Source of the DNA: Oceanispirochaeta sp.
Lineage (GTDB): Bacteria > Spirochaetota > Spirochaetia > DSM-2461
Direction of reading: 5' to 3'
Length of the DNA stretch: 64,000 nt
Assembly (NCBI GenBank): GCA_963666275.2
Contig: CAXXOA010000001.1
Span: 1,760,001 to 1,824,000 of the forward strand
Below are positions 3,165-31,798 of this stretch, in pieces; within the stretch, counting starts at the first letter, position 1, and every line of letters starts with the position of its first letter. The notes beneath the pieces were generated by a model that searched no databases, was not told the origin of the DNA, and saw only the letters and a program-made list of their open reading frames with translations. The position numbers were made by a program, and so were the translations under genes.

Positions 3165-3294
3165 ATGAAATTCTAAATTAAGTCAACTTAAACTACAACT
3201 GTTTAACAGACCTGTCAATTAGTACCGGATAACAATACTTACTGTATAACTCATATTAGTAAATAAATCAAAATTATTACTGGTTACGGAAAAG

Positions 3295-3651
3295 TTACTC
3301 CCCACCTTTCTTATTTCTTAAAGAAGTAACAACAGCCCCGGCCTCAATCAAATCCAGAAACCTGTCCAGATCCTGCAGCTCCTCCTCAGAAAGGTCATCA
3401 ATCCACTTGTGCATCATAGATTTTAACTCGGACATCCCTTCATATTTGTTTGCTTCAGCATCGGTTAAAAACTCAACACTAACACCAAGTTCTTTTGCTA
3501 TAGCTACTGATTCAGACGCTGATGGTTCAGTATCTCTTTTTATCCAGTTACTTACAGTGCTTCTTGGTCTATCCACAATTCTTGATATATCGGCTTGAGA
3601 TAAACCCTTTTTGTAGAGCAGTGGTAATGTCTTTTCCCAAAATGTACTCAT
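3295..3651 (-). CDS. XRE-family HTH prophage repressor (CI-like, no peptidase domain)
   Basis: GLSQADISRIVDRPRSTVSNW...IAKELGVSVEFL HTH_3 pattern; divergent from the early operon; short acidic helical C-terminus. Confidence 0.88.
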   Translation of the reverse strand: MSTFWEKTLPLLYKKGLSQADISRIVDRPRSTVSNWIKRDTEPSASESVAIAKELGVSVEFLTDAEANKYEGMSELKSMMHKWIDDLSEEELQDLDRFLDLIEAGAVVTSLRNKKGGE

Positions 3652-3672
3652 GTTTATTTTCTCGACACATTG

Positions 3673-3759
3673 TACCATTTTTGGGATAAAAAGATAAAAT
3701 TATTATTGACATAAAACCAATAATGGTACATTAATAGTTTATGAATACCAAAATTGGGA
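3673..3759. promoter_or_regulatory. Genetic switch with three operator-like WACCA-N4-TGGKA sites and a TTGACA promoter
   Basis: TACCAttttTGGGA 3673-3686, AACCAataaTGGTA 3715-3728, TACCAaaatTGGGA 3746-3759; TTGACA at 3706-3711. Confidence 0.7.
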
Positions 3760-3914
3760 CAAAGAATATAAAGATCAACGGAAATATTCACATCCGGATT
3801 AAGACAAGAGCTGCAATTGAAGACAGGAAGATACAAGAGGTTGTTGAAGAGGCAATATCTAATTACCTGATTTCAAAAGAGCATGATAAAAACCACAACA
3901 AAATGAGTAGTTAA
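3741..3914 (+). CDS. 57-aa ribbon-helix-helix-like protein in the Cro position (not in the ORF track)
   Basis: MNTKIGTKNIKINGNIHIRIKTRAAIEDRKIQEVVEEAISNYLISKE: alternating beta strand plus two helices, Arc/CopG-like. Confidence 0.72.
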   Translation: MNTKIGTKNIKINGNIHIRIKTRAAIEDRKIQEVVEEAISNYLISKEHDKNHNKMSS

Positions 3915-3959
3915 GAAATAAAGAAATAGCGCAATATTGCGCTTTTTAAAGGAGCCGTT

Positions 3960-4289
3960 ATGAACATCCCCGACATTGAAGATTTCAAAAGATTGGAAAA
4001 GAAAGTCTCAGCCACTCAGTTCATGATGAAAGAACTCCTGGACCTGGTAGGAGATCCTGTCCTTAACCTTGATGATGTAGCTGCCAGAGAAGGAATTTCC
4101 CGCTCCATGCTTATGAGGGAACGGTGGCGGATACCCAATTTCGGACAGTCCGACTTTGCTACCGGAAGAAAACGCTGGAGATTGAGCTCCTACTGCAAAT
4201 GGCGTGAACGGGATGAACTGGCACGGAAAGAGGAGTGGGATCTGATGCGTATTCATGATCGGGAAAAGATTGTGATGGGGCAGTTTTAA
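3960..4289 (+). CDS. Excisionase/AlpA-like HTH DNA-binding protein
   Basis: LNLDDVAAREGISRSML...RKRWRLS pattern; AAGGAG RBS. Confidence 0.6.
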   Translation: MNIPDIEDFKRLEKKVSATQFMMKELLDLVGDPVLNLDDVAAREGISRSMLMRERWRIPNFGQSDFATGRKRWRLSSYCKWRERDELARKEEWDLMRIHDREKIVMGQF

Positions 4290-4296
4290 ATTATTC

Positions 4297-4367
4297 GGTA
4301 CCGACCCACAGCAGGTTTCAGACATGCCTGCAGGCGTGGTCAGGCGGTTCAAGTCCATCCGGTGCCA
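4297..4367 (+). ncRNA. tRNA-like element 1 (acceptor stem and T-arm, non-canonical centre)
   Basis: GGTACCG/CGGTGCC 7-bp stem plus A; GGCGG-TTCAAGT-CCATC T-arm (one mismatch); central GCAGG/CCTGC hairpin. Confidence 0.6.
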
Positions 4368-4490
4368 GAAAAATCCAACCGTAACCGGTCATTGCGGCAA
4401 TGGTGATCCTGCTCCCGTAGCGAAGGGGGATTCGCTCAGGATTTTAGAAACCGGTACCCTTCACGGTGTTTCGGCCCGGAGGGTTTATTC

Positions 4491-4565
4491 AGGCTGGTTG
4501 TGTAGTGGCAATGCCCCAGGGATTGAGAGGCCCCCGGCCCCCGGGTTCGATTCCCGGTCAGCCTA
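4491..4565 (+). ncRNA. tRNA-like element 2 (acceptor, D-arm, T-arm; irregular anticodon arm)
   Basis: AGGCTGG/TCAGCCT plus A; GTGT-AGTGGCA-ATGC D-arm; CCGGG-TTCGATT-CCCGG T-arm. Confidence 0.7.
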
Positions 4566-4623
4566 TTCTTCCTTGGAATGGAATAGTTTTTCGATGTCTT
4601 GGCCGAGACGGATCCGGCCACAA

Positions 4624-4690
4624 TGGCAGGTAATGCGGTAGGAGGGTTTTCTCCTTTTCCCTTCTGGGGGTTCGATTCCCTCCCTGTCAA
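4624..4690 (+). ncRNA. tRNA-like element 3 (acceptor stem and T-arm, no D-arm)
   Basis: TGGCAGG/CCTGTCA plus A; GGGGG-TTCGATT-CCCTC T-arm; central AGGAG/CTCCT hairpin. Confidence 0.62.
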
Positions 4691-4818
4691 ATAGATGAGC
4701 CTGACCAGCTCATTCATTGCGACACATGCCCTGCGGCCGCAGGTGAACAGGTTGAAGTTGTGTGACGGGTGCAGAGAGAGGCACATCTTATAAATCCATA
4801 AATCATGTGAGGTCAAAC

Positions 4819-5052
4819 ATGAAAAAGACTCAAAGCCTGACCTGCGGGTTCATGCTGGTAAGAAACGGGCAATTCGGCCCCTGTGGGAATAAAGCAACTA
4901 TGTACTTTAAAAAAGCCCCCCTTTGTGATGAATGCTCGGAATATGTGAAAGGCCGGGGAGAGAACATCTTTCCTATTACGGAAGAGTTCGAGAAAAAGGC
5001 TCATGCTTCGGAAGAACGGAAAGCCAAAAAGATGGAGGGAATACACGCATGA
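4819..5052 (+). CDS. Small Cys-rich (zinc-finger-like) phage protein
   Basis: C...C...CDEC; GAGG RBS; ATGA overlap with parA. Confidence 0.6.
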   Translation: MKKTQSLTCGFMLVRNGQFGPCGNKATMYFKKAPLCDECSEYVKGRGENIFPITEEFEKKAHASEERKAKKMEGIHA

Positions 5053-5813
5053 AAACTATTGCATTCAGTTCCATCAAAGGCGGTACGGGTAAATCATCCA
5101 ATGCCATTATGCAGGCCAACTATCTGGCCCAGGCTGGAAAGAAGGTTTTGTGTATCGATATGGATATTCAGAACTCCATGACATTCTACTATGTTGATGA
5201 TCCGGAAGCTGTAGAATACAACTCAATAGCAGAAGCTCTTCACCGGGGAGATCTGATGGATAATGTACTGGAGACTATCTATGCCAATATTCATCTTATT
5301 CCTTCTTCATTTAACCTGGTGAATCTGAGGACTATCAGTATCCTGACTCTCAAACGGCTGTTAAGCCAGGTATCCGAGAATTATGATTTTTGCATCATAG
5401 ATACAGCTCCTACGTGGGACAACATTACTTTGAATGCCCTGTTTGCGGCAGACAGGATAGTAACTCCCTGCTATCTGTCTCAATGGGATTGGAAAGGAGC
5501 CTTGTTTTTCCAGAATCAGATTATTCAGGATCTGGGTGAAGAACACCTGCAAAAATGGAATCTTTTAGTGAACTCCTGGAAACCTCCCAGAACGGATAAT
5601 CCAGATAATATTCTGAACCAGTTGGATACGCTGTTCTTGAATAGTTTTGATAACATCCTTGAAATCCGGATCCCCCATGAAAGCCTGATAAAAAAGTATA
5701 TCGACACTGGGGAGCGGATCTCCATGGCAAAGGATAAGAGCCGTCTATTCCTGGCGGCAGAAGCCCTCTCTCAGCTCTTAACAGGGGAGCGGTTGAATGT
5801 GGAGGCTTTCTGA
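5049..5813 (+). CDS. parA: ParA family ATPase
   Basis: Deviant Walker A KGGTGKS, IDMDIQ, IIDTAP. Confidence 0.92.
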   Translation: MKTIAFSSIKGGTGKSSNAIMQANYLAQAGKKVLCIDMDIQNSMTFYYVDDPEAVEYNSIAEALHRGDLMDNVLETIYANIHLIPSSFNLVNLRTISILTLKRLLSQVSENYDFCIIDTAPTWDNITLNALFAADRIVTPCYLSQWDWKGALFFQNQIIQDLGEEHLQKWNLLVNSWKPPRTDNPDNILNQLDTLFLNSFDNILEIRIPHESLIKKYIDTGERISMAKDKSRLFLAAEALSQLLTGERLNVEAF

Positions 5814-6658
5814 TGGCCAGGGGATTAACTGTAAAGGCGAATCCCGGCAAAGAGAAAATGACGGGAGGACTGTCTCTGAATCAGCTGAGTGAGCAGATCA
5901 GGGAGCTACGGGCAAAGGTTCCTGTAATTACTTCTCCAGAGAATATTCCTACCGGAGAGCCCTTTGTCAGTCTCTTTCCGATCCAGCAGAGAAACCTGGA
6001 ATCCATTATGGAATCCATCGGGCAGAACGGGTTTGATCCCCGGAAGGCTCTGATAGTCGGGATTTTTCCGGATGGTACCAGCTTTCTTGTGGATGGTCAT
6101 ACAAGACTGTCCGCAGTGAAGGCTCTGGGGCTGGAAGAAGTCCCTATGTGGCACCAGACATTTGATAGTGTGGATGATGCAGTGGATTGGGCACTTCATG
6201 AGCAGATCGATCGTCGGAATCTTTCTGAGTCCGAGCTGTATGACTATGTATTGAAAGTAGATCAGATGAAATCCAGAGGGAGGGGTGACAGTGCATATAA
6301 AGGAAAATCTTCAGAGAGAACTGCCGATATCGTCGGTACTTCTCCCCGGAAAGTGGAGCAGATCAGGACTGTTGAGAGGGATGCTTCTGAACAGCAGAAA
6401 GAGGCGATCAGGTCAGGTGACAAATCTGTTAATCAGACCTACCGGGAAATAAAGGGTAAAGATAAAGCGCAACATTGCGCTAATTCCAGAGAACCAGAAA
6501 GGAACTGGGTGGTCAAAACCTATATTGGGAAGGTTTCTCTTATCAGAAATGGTGAAGAGGTTGTGCTGGTGAATTATACCACCATGGAGACATTGTATGG
6601 TGCCCCAGCTGAGAAGTTGCGGAAGGTGGTGGAACAGTATCTGGAGAAGATTTTGTGA
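5813..6658 (+). CDS. parB: ParB-like protein (ParB N-terminal domain plus HTH)
   Basis: LVDGHTRL..EQIDRRNL motifs; translationally coupled to parA. Confidence 0.88.
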   Translation: MARGLTVKANPGKEKMTGGLSLNQLSEQIRELRAKVPVITSPENIPTGEPFVSLFPIQQRNLESIMESIGQNGFDPRKALIVGIFPDGTSFLVDGHTRLSAVKALGLEEVPMWHQTFDSVDDAVDWALHEQIDRRNLSESELYDYVLKVDQMKSRGRGDSAYKGKSSERTADIVGTSPRKVEQIRTVERDASEQQKEAIRSGDKSVNQTYREIKGKDKAQHCANSREPERNWVVKTYIGKVSLIRNGEEVVLVNYTTMETLYGAPAEKLRKVVEQYLEKIL

Positions 6659-9395: not shown

Positions 9396-9589
9396 CTGAA
9401 ACGGGAGGGGAAATGGACTATTTGACACCTGAAATTGAAGCGCATATCGAAGAGTTGAAAGAACGATTGAGGAAAACACCTTATGGAGATGTGGGATTGG
9501 TATTCACCATGTCAGGCGGTCAGGTGACGCTGATTAAACCAATCAATCTACCAGTAATTCGACCGGGTAAAAATCATGGAAAATCTTGA
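9392..9589 (+). CDS. Small hypothetical protein
   Basis: Overlaps both neighbouring genes. Confidence 0.55.
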   Translation: MTETGGEMDYLTPEIEAHIEELKERLRKTPYGDVGLVFTMSGGQVTLIKPINLPVIRPGKNHGKS

Positions 9590-10472
9590 CAAAAATCTAG
9601 TTTCACGGGGAAAACAGCGTGTATTCAGAAATGAACGATATCGCCATATCTGTCAAAGATTTATTACCTGGTGTGCTGAACAGGAGATCCCGGAATCTAT
9701 AGGGAATGAAATTTTGTGGTTGGAATCCCTTCATGATCAGGGATTGAATGCATCGACAATACGACTTTACGGATATGCTGTTAAGGCCTATTTACTGGAC
9801 AATGTTGATACTGAAAGCATGACCATGGATGAGAAACTGTTCCATCAGTTCAAGATTGAGTATGAGTTCCGGACATTCAAGATGCCCAGAGTTTCAAATC
9901 GCAAGGCCGAAGAGTATCTAATCAATCATGAGGAGCTTCATGAAGTTCTAAATCACTCGAAGCTCAAGACCAGGATGATCATAGAATTTCTTGCCAGCAC
10001 CGGCTGCAGAGTCTCGGAAATGACCGGTATTCGGTTGAGGCATATACGGAAAGTGAGAGATTCGGAATATCGAATCCGAGTGATGGGCAAAGGCCGTAAA
10101 GAGCGGGTGATACGTATTAACGGCGGTTTAAGAAAGAGAATATCCAAAGCCTTCCCGGAAACTGAAACCTATCTATTCGAATCTGCTCCTGGTAGGAGTT
10201 ATTCCCGCCAGGGGATTCACGACCTGGTAAAGAGAGCAGGTGAAAGAGCGAAAATCTTCGGATTGCATCCCCATTCATTCAGGCATTTTTATGCCACTTT
10301 CCTGATTGATAAGACCGGGAATATAGATGCTGTATCCCGATATCTTGGGCATTCCGATGTGTCCACAACGCTCGGAATGTATTACCACAGTAAGGATCTT
10401 TCCCTGGAGGAATTGAATCTGAATCTTTACGGTGATCGTGGAAGAAATAAAGGAGTTGCTGCACATGCCTAG
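9576..10472 (+). CDS. Tyrosine recombinase (XerC/D-like)
   Basis: TGCRVSE, GKGRKER, HPHSFRH, LGHS...Y: full R-K-H-R-H-Y catalytic set. Confidence 0.93.
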   Translation: MENLDKNLVSRGKQRVFRNERYRHICQRFITWCAEQEIPESIGNEILWLESLHDQGLNASTIRLYGYAVKAYLLDNVDTESMTMDEKLFHQFKIEYEFRTFKMPRVSNRKAEEYLINHEELHEVLNHSKLKTRMIIEFLASTGCRVSEMTGIRLRHIRKVRDSEYRIRVMGKGRKERVIRINGGLRKRISKAFPETETYLFESAPGRSYSRQGIHDLVKRAGERAKIFGLHPHSFRHFYATFLIDKTGNIDAVSRYLGHSDVSTTLGMYYHSKDLSLEELNLNLYGDRGRNKGVAAHA

Positions 10473-11947: not shown

Positions 11948-13630
11948 TTGGAAAAGACATACCGCCAGTACATTGATGATGTGATTACCGGGAAGGAAGT
12001 CGCCTGTAAATGGGTGAAACTTTCCGTTCAACGTCATGCAGATGATCTGGTGAAATCAGAAACAGATGAATCCTTTCCGTACTGCTTTGATGAAGAAGCC
12101 GCCGCCCGGATCATCGATTTTATCGGGTTCTGTAAGCACGTAAAGGGAGAATTGAAAGGGCAGTTCATCCACCTGGAGCCAGCCCAGCAGTTTGTACTGG
12201 CCTGCGTGTTCGGCTGGAAGCACAGGGTAAGCGGATCCCGTCGATTCCGTTATGTGTATGAAGAGAAGGCCCGTAAAAATGCCAAGTCCACAATCCTGGC
12301 GGGAATTGGGTTGTATATGCTGTTCCTGGATCAGGAAGGCGGATCAGAAGTCTATTCGGCAGCGGTGGATAAAGACCAGGCAAAAATAGTCTGGGGCGTA
12401 GCTCGTGAGATGATCGGCCAGTCCAAAGACTTCAAGAAAATGCTGAAAGACTATACCGGGTCCATTGTACACCCGTCTTCTGCCAGCTCCTTTAAACCCC
12501 TGTCTCGGGACAACAAGAACAAGGACGGTTTGAACGTCCATTGCGCCCTAGTGGATGAGTACCATGCTCATCCTGATGATTCCATTCTGGAACTGCTCAA
12601 GGGCGGTATGGGTAGCCGTACCCAGCCTCTCCTCTGGGTTATTACCACCGCCGGATTTAATCGAAACTGTGCCTGTAAGCGGGAGCGGGACAGGGTTGAG
12701 CGGATCCTTCAGGGGATTGAAGAGGATCCGGAATACTTTGGAATTATTTATACCCTGGATGAAGGGGACGACTGGAAGGATCCGGAAGTGTGGCAGAAAT
12801 CAAACCCTCTTTTGGATGTTGCTGTTACCAGGGATTTTCTGGAGTCACTGCTACGGGATGCGAAAGTTCGGCCTGAAAAAGAGAATAACTTTAAGGTGAA
12901 ACATCTGAATCTCTGGGTGGATGCCCATACCAGGTGGATCAATCATGAAACCTGGATCAAATGCCGCCGGGATTTCGAAGAAGAGCAGTTGATAGGAAGG
13001 AAGTGCGTGGCCGGATTTGACCTTTCGACCACTACCGACTTGGCCGGGTATGGGCTTTGTTTCCCACCGGTCCATGAAGATGAACCGTATAAGTTCCTCT
13101 GGCGGTTTTTTATGCCCGAAGAGACTCTGGATAACAGAAGCGAAGATGTTCCCTATAGAGCCTGGGTCAATTTGGGGTATATCACAGCGACCTATGGGAA
13201 TGTGATCGACTATAACGAGATTGAAGCCAGCATCCGGAAGGATGCAGAAACGTTTGATATTGAAGAACTGAATTTCGACCCCTGGGGCGCCCAGGGAATT
13301 ATCAATGATCTGACAGCGGAAGACATGAATTGTGTCCGGTTTAGTCAGGGGATGAAGGATATTTCTCCGGCTGTGAAGCATACGGAACGGGGGATCCTCT
13401 CCCAGGAAGTTTCCTATAGCGGAAATCCTGTAATGGATTTTATGGTGTCCTGTGCGGAAATCTACCGGGATTCCAATGACAATGTGAAGCTTGTTAAACC
13501 GAAACGGGAAGAAACATCCTCCCGGATTGACGGTGTGATCATGATGGTCATGGCCTATTATAGGGCGTTCTTACTCCAGGGGGTTCAGGCTGAATCAGTA
13601 TATGAGGCACGGGGGATGAGATGGATATAG
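11948..13630 (+). CDS. Terminase large subunit
   Basis: ARKNAKS Walker A; VDEYH Walker B; GFDLS; SRIDG; AGGAG RBS before the TTG at 11948. Confidence 0.95.
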   Translation: MEKTYRQYIDDVITGKEVACKWVKLSVQRHADDLVKSETDESFPYCFDEEAAARIIDFIGFCKHVKGELKGQFIHLEPAQQFVLACVFGWKHRVSGSRRFRYVYEEKARKNAKSTILAGIGLYMLFLDQEGGSEVYSAAVDKDQAKIVWGVAREMIGQSKDFKKMLKDYTGSIVHPSSASSFKPLSRDNKNKDGLNVHCALVDEYHAHPDDSILELLKGGMGSRTQPLLWVITTAGFNRNCACKRERDRVERILQGIEEDPEYFGIIYTLDEGDDWKDPEVWQKSNPLLDVAVTRDFLESLLRDAKVRPEKENNFKVKHLNLWVDAHTRWINHETWIKCRRDFEEEQLIGRKCVAGFDLSTTTDLAGYGLCFPPVHEDEPYKFLWRFFMPEETLDNRSEDVPYRAWVNLGYITATYGNVIDYNEIEASIRKDAETFDIEELNFDPWGAQGIINDLTAEDMNCVRFSQGMKDISPAVKHTERGILSQEVSYSGNPVMDFMVSCAEIYRDSNDNVKLVKPKREETSSRIDGVIMMVMAYYRAFLLQGVQAESVYEARGMRWI

Positions 13631-31782: not shown

Positions 31783-31798
31783 CCGGTCACCGGCACGA
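31783..31798 (+). repeat. attR-like copy of a tRNA 3' end
   Basis: CCGGT-CACCGGC-A fits a 3' T-stem, acceptor strand and discriminator; 12 bp repeated at 35767-35778. Confidence 0.6.

Follow-up and report, generated by a model that had tools for sequence, protein, structure and literature searches.

Candidate tRNA-derived processing modules in the early operon of an Oceanispirochaeta prophage

We studied a 64,000-nt stretch of the Oceanispirochaeta sp. genome (contig CAXXOA010000001.1, positions 1,760,001 to 1,824,000; referred to as the window), in which three tRNA-shaped elements, named E1, E2 and E3, lie in the early operon of a prophage, between an excisionase-like (xis-like) gene and a cysteine-rich (Cys-rich) gene that precedes parA and parB. 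Our preferred reading, which is tentative and to which we assign a probability of roughly 45%, is that these elements are tRNA-derived, non-decoding processing modules that RNase P and RNase Z would excise from the transcript, thereby dividing the xis-like mRNA from the parAB mRNA and setting free small tRNA-shaped RNAs. All of them retain the end-processing features of a tRNA, namely a 7-bp acceptor stem on a 5-bp T stem (4/5 paired in E1), a GTTCRA T-loop within the T-arm motif GGTTCRANNCC (GGTTCAAGTCC in E1, GGTTCGATTCC in E2 and E3), a discriminator A and no encoded CCA. A preliminary description of the same DNA had reported three elements with acceptor stems, T-arms and a discriminator A, and our analysis reproduced both their coordinates and this anatomy.

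Placement and anatomy of the elements

The operon runs in the order RHH/Cro-like gene, xis-like gene, E1, E2, E3, a structured leader, Cys-rich gene, parA and parB, with E1–E3 standing between co-oriented genes of a single operon. We infer that the region would be transcribed as one RNA and cleaved at the elements, with an effect on the fate of the mRNAs. Host RNase P would cut the 5′ ends at positions 4297, 4491 and 4624, and host RNase Z would cut behind the discriminators at 4367, 4565 and 4690. Cleavage would end the xis-like mRNA a few bases past its stop codon and create the 5′ end of a hairpin-capped leader for the Cys-rich–parAB mRNA; the 67–75-nt tRNA-shaped RNAs released in this way may receive CCA.

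We favour processing because of the spacing to the upstream stop codon, the position of the leader directly behind E3, and the tRNA genes and tRNA-maturation enzymes of the host. The first element starts 7 nt past the xis-like stop codon in the window (E1), and 9 and 8 nt past it (E2 in both cases) in G007 and G008, the two relatives that carry the full locus. Like the elements, 60 of the 61 host tRNA genes have no encoded CCA, and the host genome contains a type A RNase P RNA (266.8 bits), RNase Z (346 bits) and two enzymes of the PolyA_pol family (CCA-adding type). Cutting of the mRNA is also simpler than a cargo or decoy function of the excised RNAs and fits the placement of the elements at least as well.

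Outside the acceptor stem and T-arm, the elements differ from each other. A D-arm with G18G19 is present in E2 (4-bp stem, 100% paired) and absent from E1 and E3. The acceptor stem of E1 (GGTACCG/CGGTGCC) is paired at all 7 positions with one U.G, its T-arm (GGCGG-TTCAAGT-CCATC) has one C.A mismatch, and a single long, interrupted central arm (CCAC/GTGG plus GCAGGU/GCCUGC) carries a 9-nt loop, UUCAGACAU. In E2, the acceptor stem (AGGCTGG/TCAGCCT, 7/7 including G7.U66) and the T-arm (CCGGG-TTCGATT-CCCGG, 5/5) are both fully paired. Its D-arm (GTGT/ATGC) has a GG loop, the body carries U8, A14, G18G19, the T-loop and the discriminator A, and a 6–7-bp stem with a conserved 10–11-nt loop occupies the position of the anticodon arm. 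E3 likewise pairs its acceptor stem (TGGCAGG/CCTGTCA, 7/7 including G3.U) and T-arm (GGGGG-TTCGATT-CCCTC, 5/5 with one G.U) throughout; it has a linker, UAAUGCGGU, that contains GG, and a central hairpin with a 12-nt pyrimidine loop that abuts the T-arm. An alanyl-tRNA synthetase (AlaRS)-type G3.U70 identity mark was considered and rejected, as only the E3 copy of the window has G3.U and the pair is not conserved. The minimum-free-energy z-scores of the three elements were unremarkable (−1.57, −0.58 and −1.07).

Two hairpins lie between the T-arm of E2 and the start of E3 (Table 1). The A+U-rich one that overlaps the end of E2 looks like a weak intrinsic terminator or a 3′-trailer hairpin, and a consensus terminator scan passed over it for its few G-C pairs. 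The other, just upstream of E3, is found at the same position in G007 and G008 with other stem sequences.

Covariation and likeness to tRNAs

We compared the three full loci, those of the window, G007 and G008, by pairwise DNA identity of each segment (Table 1). The acceptor, D and T helices of E2 are 100% paired in all three, with 3 compensatory pairs, to which the central stem adds one. When the partners were slid by 1–3 columns, pairing fell to 32–55%, and 17 of 500 shuffles reached the observed value. Similarly, the acceptor and T helices of E3 are 100% paired with 4 compensatory pairs, despite the low identity between the E3 copy of the window and the others; here, slid partners gave 47–69% pairing and the observed value was reached in 7 of 500 shuffles. 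Since all acceptor and T-stem pairs of E2 and E3 are kept through 7 compensatory pairs, the comparison suggests that the tRNA-like upper half of both elements is under selection. Covariation across related prophages had been proposed as a check in the preliminary description, and the stems of E2 and E3 indeed carry compensatory changes in two of them. The leader downstream of E3 is the best-conserved non-coding segment, with 31 predicted pairs, 8 of which show a compensatory change, in a fold of four conserved helices. It may be a regulatory RNA in its own right, and positions 4691–4821 gave no Rfam match.

The conserved stems also include G.U pairs, at 7-72 of E2 in all three copies and at 55-71 of the T stem in two, which argues for pairing at the level of RNA and not of DNA. 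This bears on the idea that the inverted repeats serve as recombination or attachment sites, either for the second tyrosine recombinase of the prophage or for satellites that target tRNA genes. The arms of tRNA genes are common integrase targets, TTATTC direct repeats flank the E1 insertion described below, and the adjoining cassette has been swapped in a relative. However, the conserved G.T positions can pair only as RNA, the T-loop consensus has been preserved in the direction in which the operon is transcribed, and the att core of the prophage lies elsewhere, at the 3′ end of tRNA-Leu(UAA). Taken together, this makes a DNA-level role extremely unlikely.

We then asked how far the elements resemble tRNAs to standard gene finders. 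ARAGORN called only E2 in the window, as tRNA-Leu(gag), by way of a mismatched 3-bp anticodon stem. No match to any of 4227 Rfam families was obtained in the whole window at gathering score, and the tRNA model RF00005 was absent from the matches in E-value mode as well, which comprised only T-arm fragments and sub-threshold mascRNA matches; E1 and E3 never pass RF00005. Applied to the three E2 orthologues, RF00005 accepted only the G007 copy, and marginally (at 32.6 bits, where the gathering score is 29), with a fit that relies on a 3-bp anticodon stem and a 10-nt insert. ARAGORN named the same orthologues Leu(gag), Ile(gat) and Lys(ttt), that is, with three different anticodons. A canonical 5-bp anticodon stem, a 7-nt loop and a shared anticodon were not found, and the loops of E1 and E3 are 9–12 nt long. 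The preliminary description had stated that none of the elements has a valid anticodon arm; the anticodon arm is indeed canonical in none of E1, E2 and E3, although ARAGORN nonetheless calls E2 a tRNA-Leu(gag).

The central stem of E2 differs between the loci (CCAGGG/CCCCGG with one A.C in the window, UCGGAG/CUCCGG in G007, CUGCGGG/CCUGCGG in G008), and 8 of 10 bases of its loop are constant (AUUGAGAGGC in the window and G007, UUUUAGAGGCA in G008). We considered that E2 alone might function as an unusual tRNA, such as a decoder of the Leu type whose anticodon loop is enlarged. ARAGORN calls all three orthologues, RF00005 passes one of them, the body has the tRNA features listed above, and one register of the loop would read GAG (window and G007) or UAG (G008), both of which are Leu CUN anticodons. 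On the other hand, the ARAGORN anticodons disagree, the window and G008 copies stay below the Rfam thresholds, and the covarying stem leaves a loop of 10–11 nt. Unlike bacterial tRNA-Leu, including all six tRNA-Leu genes of the host, E2 is moreover not of the long-variable-arm type. Both tRNA-Leu(GAG) and tRNA-Leu(UAG) are already present in the host, and the large phage genes are read through without recoding. A decoding role of E2 is therefore highly unlikely. For the elements as a whole, we exclude decoders from the preferred reading because of the three ARAGORN anticodons, the Rfam failures, the 10–11-nt loop of E2 and the missing D-arms of E1 and E3.

Intact tRNAs at this place in related phages, which the preliminary description had named as the sign of simple decay, were not found in the relatives: the E2 anticodon arms are non-canonical and inconsistent. 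For E2 and E3, with their conserved stems, its proposal of a tRNA scaffold that is kept for something other than decoding is the reading that fits best.

To estimate how often the upper half of a tRNA arises by chance, we used a scanner that asks for G-TTCRANN-C, a T stem of 5 bp in which no more than 1 pair may be mismatched, and an acceptor stem paired at 7/7 positions. Of the 61 ARAGORN tRNAs it found 59, and it gave 10 other matches in 5.27 Mb. Markov-simulated sequence yielded 4, 6 and 5 matches per 2.6 Mb, so that about 10 are expected genome-wide and a lone match carries no meaning. Two of the 10 non-tRNA matches are E1 and E3, which lie on the same strand within less than 400 nt, on either side of E2. 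The scanner also picked out an acceptor/T-arm-like pattern at 12515–12588 on the minus strand, antisense to the large terminase gene (TerL) in which it lies, and this pattern most probably belongs to the 10 or so chance matches expected in a genome.

A model built from E2 scored its three copies at 87–102 bits and ordinary host tRNAs, including tRNA-Gln and tRNA-His types, at no more than 43.6 bits. The D-arm of E2 is near-identical to that of host tRNA-Gln(CUG), on account of which we take E2 to be tRNA-derived with a rebuilt anticodon arm. No single host tRNA could be identified as the origin of an element: identity between a host tRNA and an element reaches 69% at most, and only T-arm or D-arm words match. 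By model search, E1 is dissimilar to E3, since the E3 model does not match it.

Turnover of the slot and the role of released RNAs

The xis-like gene together with the elements was found in 3 of 38 genomes of the family (G000, which contains the window, G007 and G008), all from one genus. The order in all three loci is xis-like gene, E2, spacer, E3, conserved leader, Cys-rich gene and ParA. Together, E1 and the 123-nt spacer behind it make up an insertion of about 195 nt (4290–4484) that, among the three full loci, is present in the window only and has TTATTC on both sides. The preliminary description had noted this hexamer ahead of E1 and E2, where it was found at 4291–4296 and 4485–4490. We also considered a protein-coding reading of the region and rejected it: the open reading frames (ORFs) at 4324–4641(+), 4466–4633(+), 4436–4816(−) and 4008–4358(−) gave no Pfam or PHROG match, and the ORFs of the element region are not conserved because the insertion is absent from G007 and G008. 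Within the E1 spacer, the segment 4404–4444 (AUCCUG-CUCCC-GU-AGCGAA-GGGGG-A-UUCGCU-CAGGAU) can be drawn as an H-type pseudoknot with a 6-bp closing helix; this candidate occurs only in the window and in one near-identical metagenome contig.

A 32-kb contig from a close relative (organism B) matches the window at 3950–4287 (xis-like gene) and at 4594–5100 (E3, leader and Cys-rich gene), with 42 differences in each match. Between them, 593 unrelated letters replace window positions 4288–4593 (306 nt comprising E1, the spacer, E2 and the hairpin). The flanks of the swapped stretch are about 88–92% identical, and the E3 region about 92%. On this comparison, the E1–E2 cassette appears to be exchangeable and E3 to be part of the backbone. 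The idea of an array of three as a conserved unit therefore had to be given up, with E1 in a window-only insertion and the entire E1–E2 cassette swapped in a close relative. Two metagenome runs contained 156-nt contigs that cover 4394–4480 (1 difference) and 4495–4609 (8 differences). Their loose ends resemble the 3′ end of E1 (...TGCCA, upstream of the same spacer) and the 5′ end of E3.

Wider searches gave little. In a viral contig collection, the xis-like protein, its alignment and two DNA patterns found no relative, the 12 pattern matches being attributable to chance. In a genome contig collection, the Cys-rich protein had no match and the one find of the xis alignment was L020, which coincides with the G007 locus; in a metagenome contig collection, there was one 1.6-kb contig (L021), which breaks off at the stop codon of the xis-like gene. 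Neither blastn nor tblastn gave a match in collections of phage and plasmid records. Among 401 genomes sampled from the phylum, the sole find was a distant xis-like gene in G431, which has no adjoining tRNA-like element, and the E3 model gave 4 weak matches (24–27 bits) in 151 genomes of the class, none of them tRNA-shaped.

In the spacer between E2 and E3 of G007 (L004 1656–1678), we observed an exact 14-nt copy of the 5′ end of tRNA-Leu(CAG), TGCCTGGATGGTGA (E = 0.005). It is preceded by a 10-nt partial duplicate, and the sequence after it resembles a decayed anticodon arm; the slot thus contains debris of tRNA genes.

Such debris could mean that the elements are relics, that is, decaying or rearranged phage tRNA genes from a former, possibly tRNA-Leu, cluster, with no present function. 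The fragment and its partial duplicate speak for this, as do the missing full orthologue and the T-stem mismatch of E1, the turnover of the cassette between relatives, and the kinship of E2 with ordinary tRNAs, seen both in its tRNA-Gln(CUG)-like D-arm and in the host tRNAs that are the next-best matches of the E2 model. Relic stems would gather mismatches, however, and the acceptor and T stems of E2 and E3 have kept every pair through compensatory changes; E2 is also conserved above the neighbouring genes and far above the spacer. Decay suits E1 and the spacers better than E2 and E3, and as an account of the elements as a set we judge it distinctly unlikely.

Several points weigh against processing modules as the whole explanation. 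With three loci, the covariation counts are small and suggestive, and are no statistical proof. E1 lacks a full orthologue, and one pair of its T stem is a C.A mismatch. The tRNA-Leu(CAG) debris and the cassette swap leave room for the view that part of the region may consist of tRNA genes in turnover, and the weak terminator-like hairpin behind E2 could place E3 on a separate transcript. Finally, a pure cut mark needs neither the conserved loop of E2 nor its intact D-arm, which hints that the released RNA itself may matter.

If so, RNase P and RNase Z would excise a stable tRNA scaffold whose loop, variable or conserved, either has a regulatory role or serves as decoy or sponge against a host defence or toxin that targets tRNAs. 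We consider it unlikely that the released RNAs are the point, with evidence on both sides. The body of E2 is that of a complete tRNA and its loop is conserved, a place in the early operon would suit counter-defence, and the E1–E2 cassette swaps between close relatives, like many accessory anti-defence loci. The loops of E1 (U-UUCAGAC-AU) and E2 (A-UUGAGAG-GC) also include heptamers close to the loops of host tRNA-Leu(CAG) (UUCAGGG) and tRNA-Leu(GAG) (UUGAGGG). This Leu reading is one of 2–3 registers (U33, purine 37) per loop and could reflect coincidence or ancestry. The loop of E3 is not conserved between the window (UUUUCUCCUUUU) and G007 and G008 (UAUCCAGCUAU and UAACCAGCUAU), and loops of 9–12 nt break the 7-nt anticodon-loop geometry read by known anticodon nucleases. 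That phage tRNAs can evade tRNA-cleaving defences is established (PMC10264068, PMC11464382, PMC11555353). These tRNAs resemble the elements in an altered anticodon region on a kept body and in being accessory and variable; unlike E1–E3, which have 9–12-nt loops or missing arms and are predicted to be non-decoding, they are working tRNAs with 7-nt loops. A paper on AcrIIIA1 (PMC11662646) was set aside as not relevant, since it concerns host tRNA fragments.

For 7 loops and 3 phage genomes, the best duplex energies of antisense targets fell within the range of shuffled loops, and the only exact complements of the loops in these genomes were on the antisense strand of each element itself. The preliminary suggestion of antisense regulators thus found no central-loop target above the shuffled-loop baseline. 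Its alternative of decoys for tRNA-targeting defences kept a weak hint in the Leu-like loop heptamers, the register of which is ambiguous. A more specific version, which we regard as very unlikely, is that the slot after the xis-like gene holds exchangeable tRNA-body decoys (E1 and E2, presenting UUCAGAC and UUGAGAG/UUUAGAG in enlarged loops on intact bodies that RNase P and RNase Z could excise and that could be tagged with CCA) that would soak up or misdirect a host defence or toxin acting on tRNA-Leu or on the tRNA upper half, with E3 as a fixed processing module. If it held, the decoy cassette would be a class of RNA-only anti-defence elements on a tRNA scaffold.

Known parallels, prophage setting and meaning

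Cut marks that resemble tRNAs are textbook knowledge for mitochondria and for a few eukaryotic long RNAs. In the eukaryotic mascRNA/MEN-beta, a tRNA-like fold that ends a long RNA is cut by RNase P and RNase Z and CCA-tailed. The mascRNA family (RF01684) is the best Rfam model on E1 in E-value mode (18.6 bits; 17.1 bits on E2), a likeness of shape only, with scores far under the gathering score of 42.5. The tRNA-like domain of tmRNA likewise lacks an anticodon arm and combines an acceptor stem with a T-arm. Two of the T-arms matched the Rfam model of tmRNA (15.8 and 11.7 bits, gathering score 47), over 17–18 nt only; the 67–75-nt elements have neither pseudoknots nor a tag reading frame, and ARAGORN found no tmRNA in the window.

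The C4 RNAs of P1 and P7 and the CI RNA of P4 are small phage immunity RNAs that RNase P cuts from an operon transcript early in the phage programme. Their mode of action is antisense pairing with sites of their own operon, and they are not known to have a tRNA shape with a T-loop. E1–E3 would resemble them in being cut from an early phage operon RNA. They differ in their tRNA shape with a T-loop and in having no complementary site in the three phage genomes, and the phage in the window has a protein repressor of the CI type. A C4-type match, which had been suggested as a check, was found in the window neither at gathering score nor in E-value mode across the same 4227 families.

The closest worked-out parallel, by analogy, is the t-element of plant mitochondria. 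As described by Forner et al. (2007; PMC1920247), these tRNA-like folds depart from the canonical cloverleaf, form part of longer transcripts and have a conserved GGTTCRANYCC T-arm; their ends coincide with mapped mRNA ends, and the excised element can carry a non-encoded C, CC or CA. They are read by RNase P and RNase Z, which thereby set mRNA 3′ and 5′ ends. E1, E2 and E3 share this T-arm motif and likewise stand at gene boundaries. The systems have no sequence relationship; t-elements are organellar with experimentally mapped ends, the elements described here belong to a phage and are known from sequence alone, and E2 in addition retains a full D-arm and a conserved central loop. Searches of open-access full texts and bioRxiv turned up no paper in which tRNA look-alikes that are conserved and lack an anticodon are described as built-in components of the early operons of phages.

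The prophage measures about 34.7 kb, of which bases 1–31796 lie in the window. Its attachment target is the host tRNA-Leu(UAA) at G000:C1:1756975-1757060, the 3′ end of which it abuts; an integrase-like reading frame begins directly past this tRNA. Positions 31783–31796 of the window repeat the last 14 nt of tRNA-Leu(taa), CCGGTCACCGGCAC, so that the prophage is bounded by a 14-nt direct repeat, and look-alike terminator hairpins lie 3′ of both copies. In G007 and G008, tRNA-Leu(taa) is found about 6 kb upstream of the homologous region and E2. The sequence of CI-type repressor, RHH gene, xis-like gene, elements, Cys-rich gene, ParA and ParB-like gene makes the earlier label of a prophage early operon a fair one (Table 1). 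The annotation of the xis-like protein draws on phrog_66 (E = 5.9e-4) and on RdfS excisionase as the best PDB/fold match (E = 0.26).

Table 1. Features of the early region of the prophage, with pairwise DNA identity among the three full loci
Feature	Position	Strand	Identity	Remarks
CI-type HTH repressor	3295–3678	−		divergent from the rightward operon
RHH (Cro-like) gene	3741–3914			rightward operon
xis-like gene	3960–4289	+	62–67%	109 aa, MerR/excisionase-type HTH; annotation weak
E1	4297–4367	+		tRNA-shaped, no D-arm
Spacer arriving with E1	4368–4490	+		candidate hairpins and possible pseudoknot; no Rfam match
E2	4491–4565	+	71–81%	tRNA-derived; acceptor, D and T arms all present
A+U-rich hairpin CTATTC..GGAATAG, then TTTTT	4563–4591	+		overlaps the last 3 nt of E2
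Hairpin (T)GGCCG-AGACGGATC-CGGCC(A)	4600–4620	+		just 5′ of E3
E2–E3 spacer			32–53%	
E3	4624–4690	+	61–62% (window vs others); 90% (G007 vs G008)	D-armless tRNA-shaped element
Conserved structured leader of the Cys-rich–parAB genes	4691–4821	+	72–80%	begins 1 nt after the E3 discriminator
Leader hairpin ATGAGC-CUGACCA-GCUCAU	4695–4713	+		invariant 7-nt loop CUGACCA; starts 5 nt past E3
Leader long stem	~4719–4766	+		
Leader hairpin GUGC-AGAGAGAG-GCAC	4769–4784	+		purine loop AGAGAGAG
Leader hairpin CAUGU-GAGGUCAA-ACAUG	4804–4821	+		encloses the Shine–Dalgarno sequence and AUG
Cys-rich gene	4819–5052	+	62–67%	77 aa, C-x12-C-x13-C-x2-C; no family match
ParA gene	5049–5813	+		downstream of the Cys-rich gene
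ParB-like gene	5813–6658	+		downstream of ParA
Second tyrosine recombinase	9576–10472			after a DnaD-like gene; TerS and TerL further on

In addition to the integrase on the tRNA side, the integrated prophage encodes a second tyrosine recombinase as well as ParA and a ParB-like protein, which may point to a plasmid-living phage or to a dimer-resolution system. A palindrome, AGCGCAA-nn-TTGCGCT, lies at 3928–3943 between the RHH and xis-like genes and is kept in all three phages (L004 ~1127–1142, L006 ~1471–1486); in the window, TTTTT comes after it. Candidate roles are that of an operator and that of a terminator or attenuator ahead of the xis-like gene. A scan for sigma-70-like promoters in 3200–5200 returned none and was uninformative, as it missed even the expected early promoter. 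A search for RNA runs that contain the stretch listed none.

The locus offers a compact test case, with two conserved modules and a swappable cassette beside a highly structured leader. If the elements are processed as predicted, annotation pipelines would mislabel or miss such elements, as here, where ARAGORN calls one of the three and Rfam none. Temperate phages would then be using the essential tRNA-maturation enzymes of their host to divide and time their early messages.

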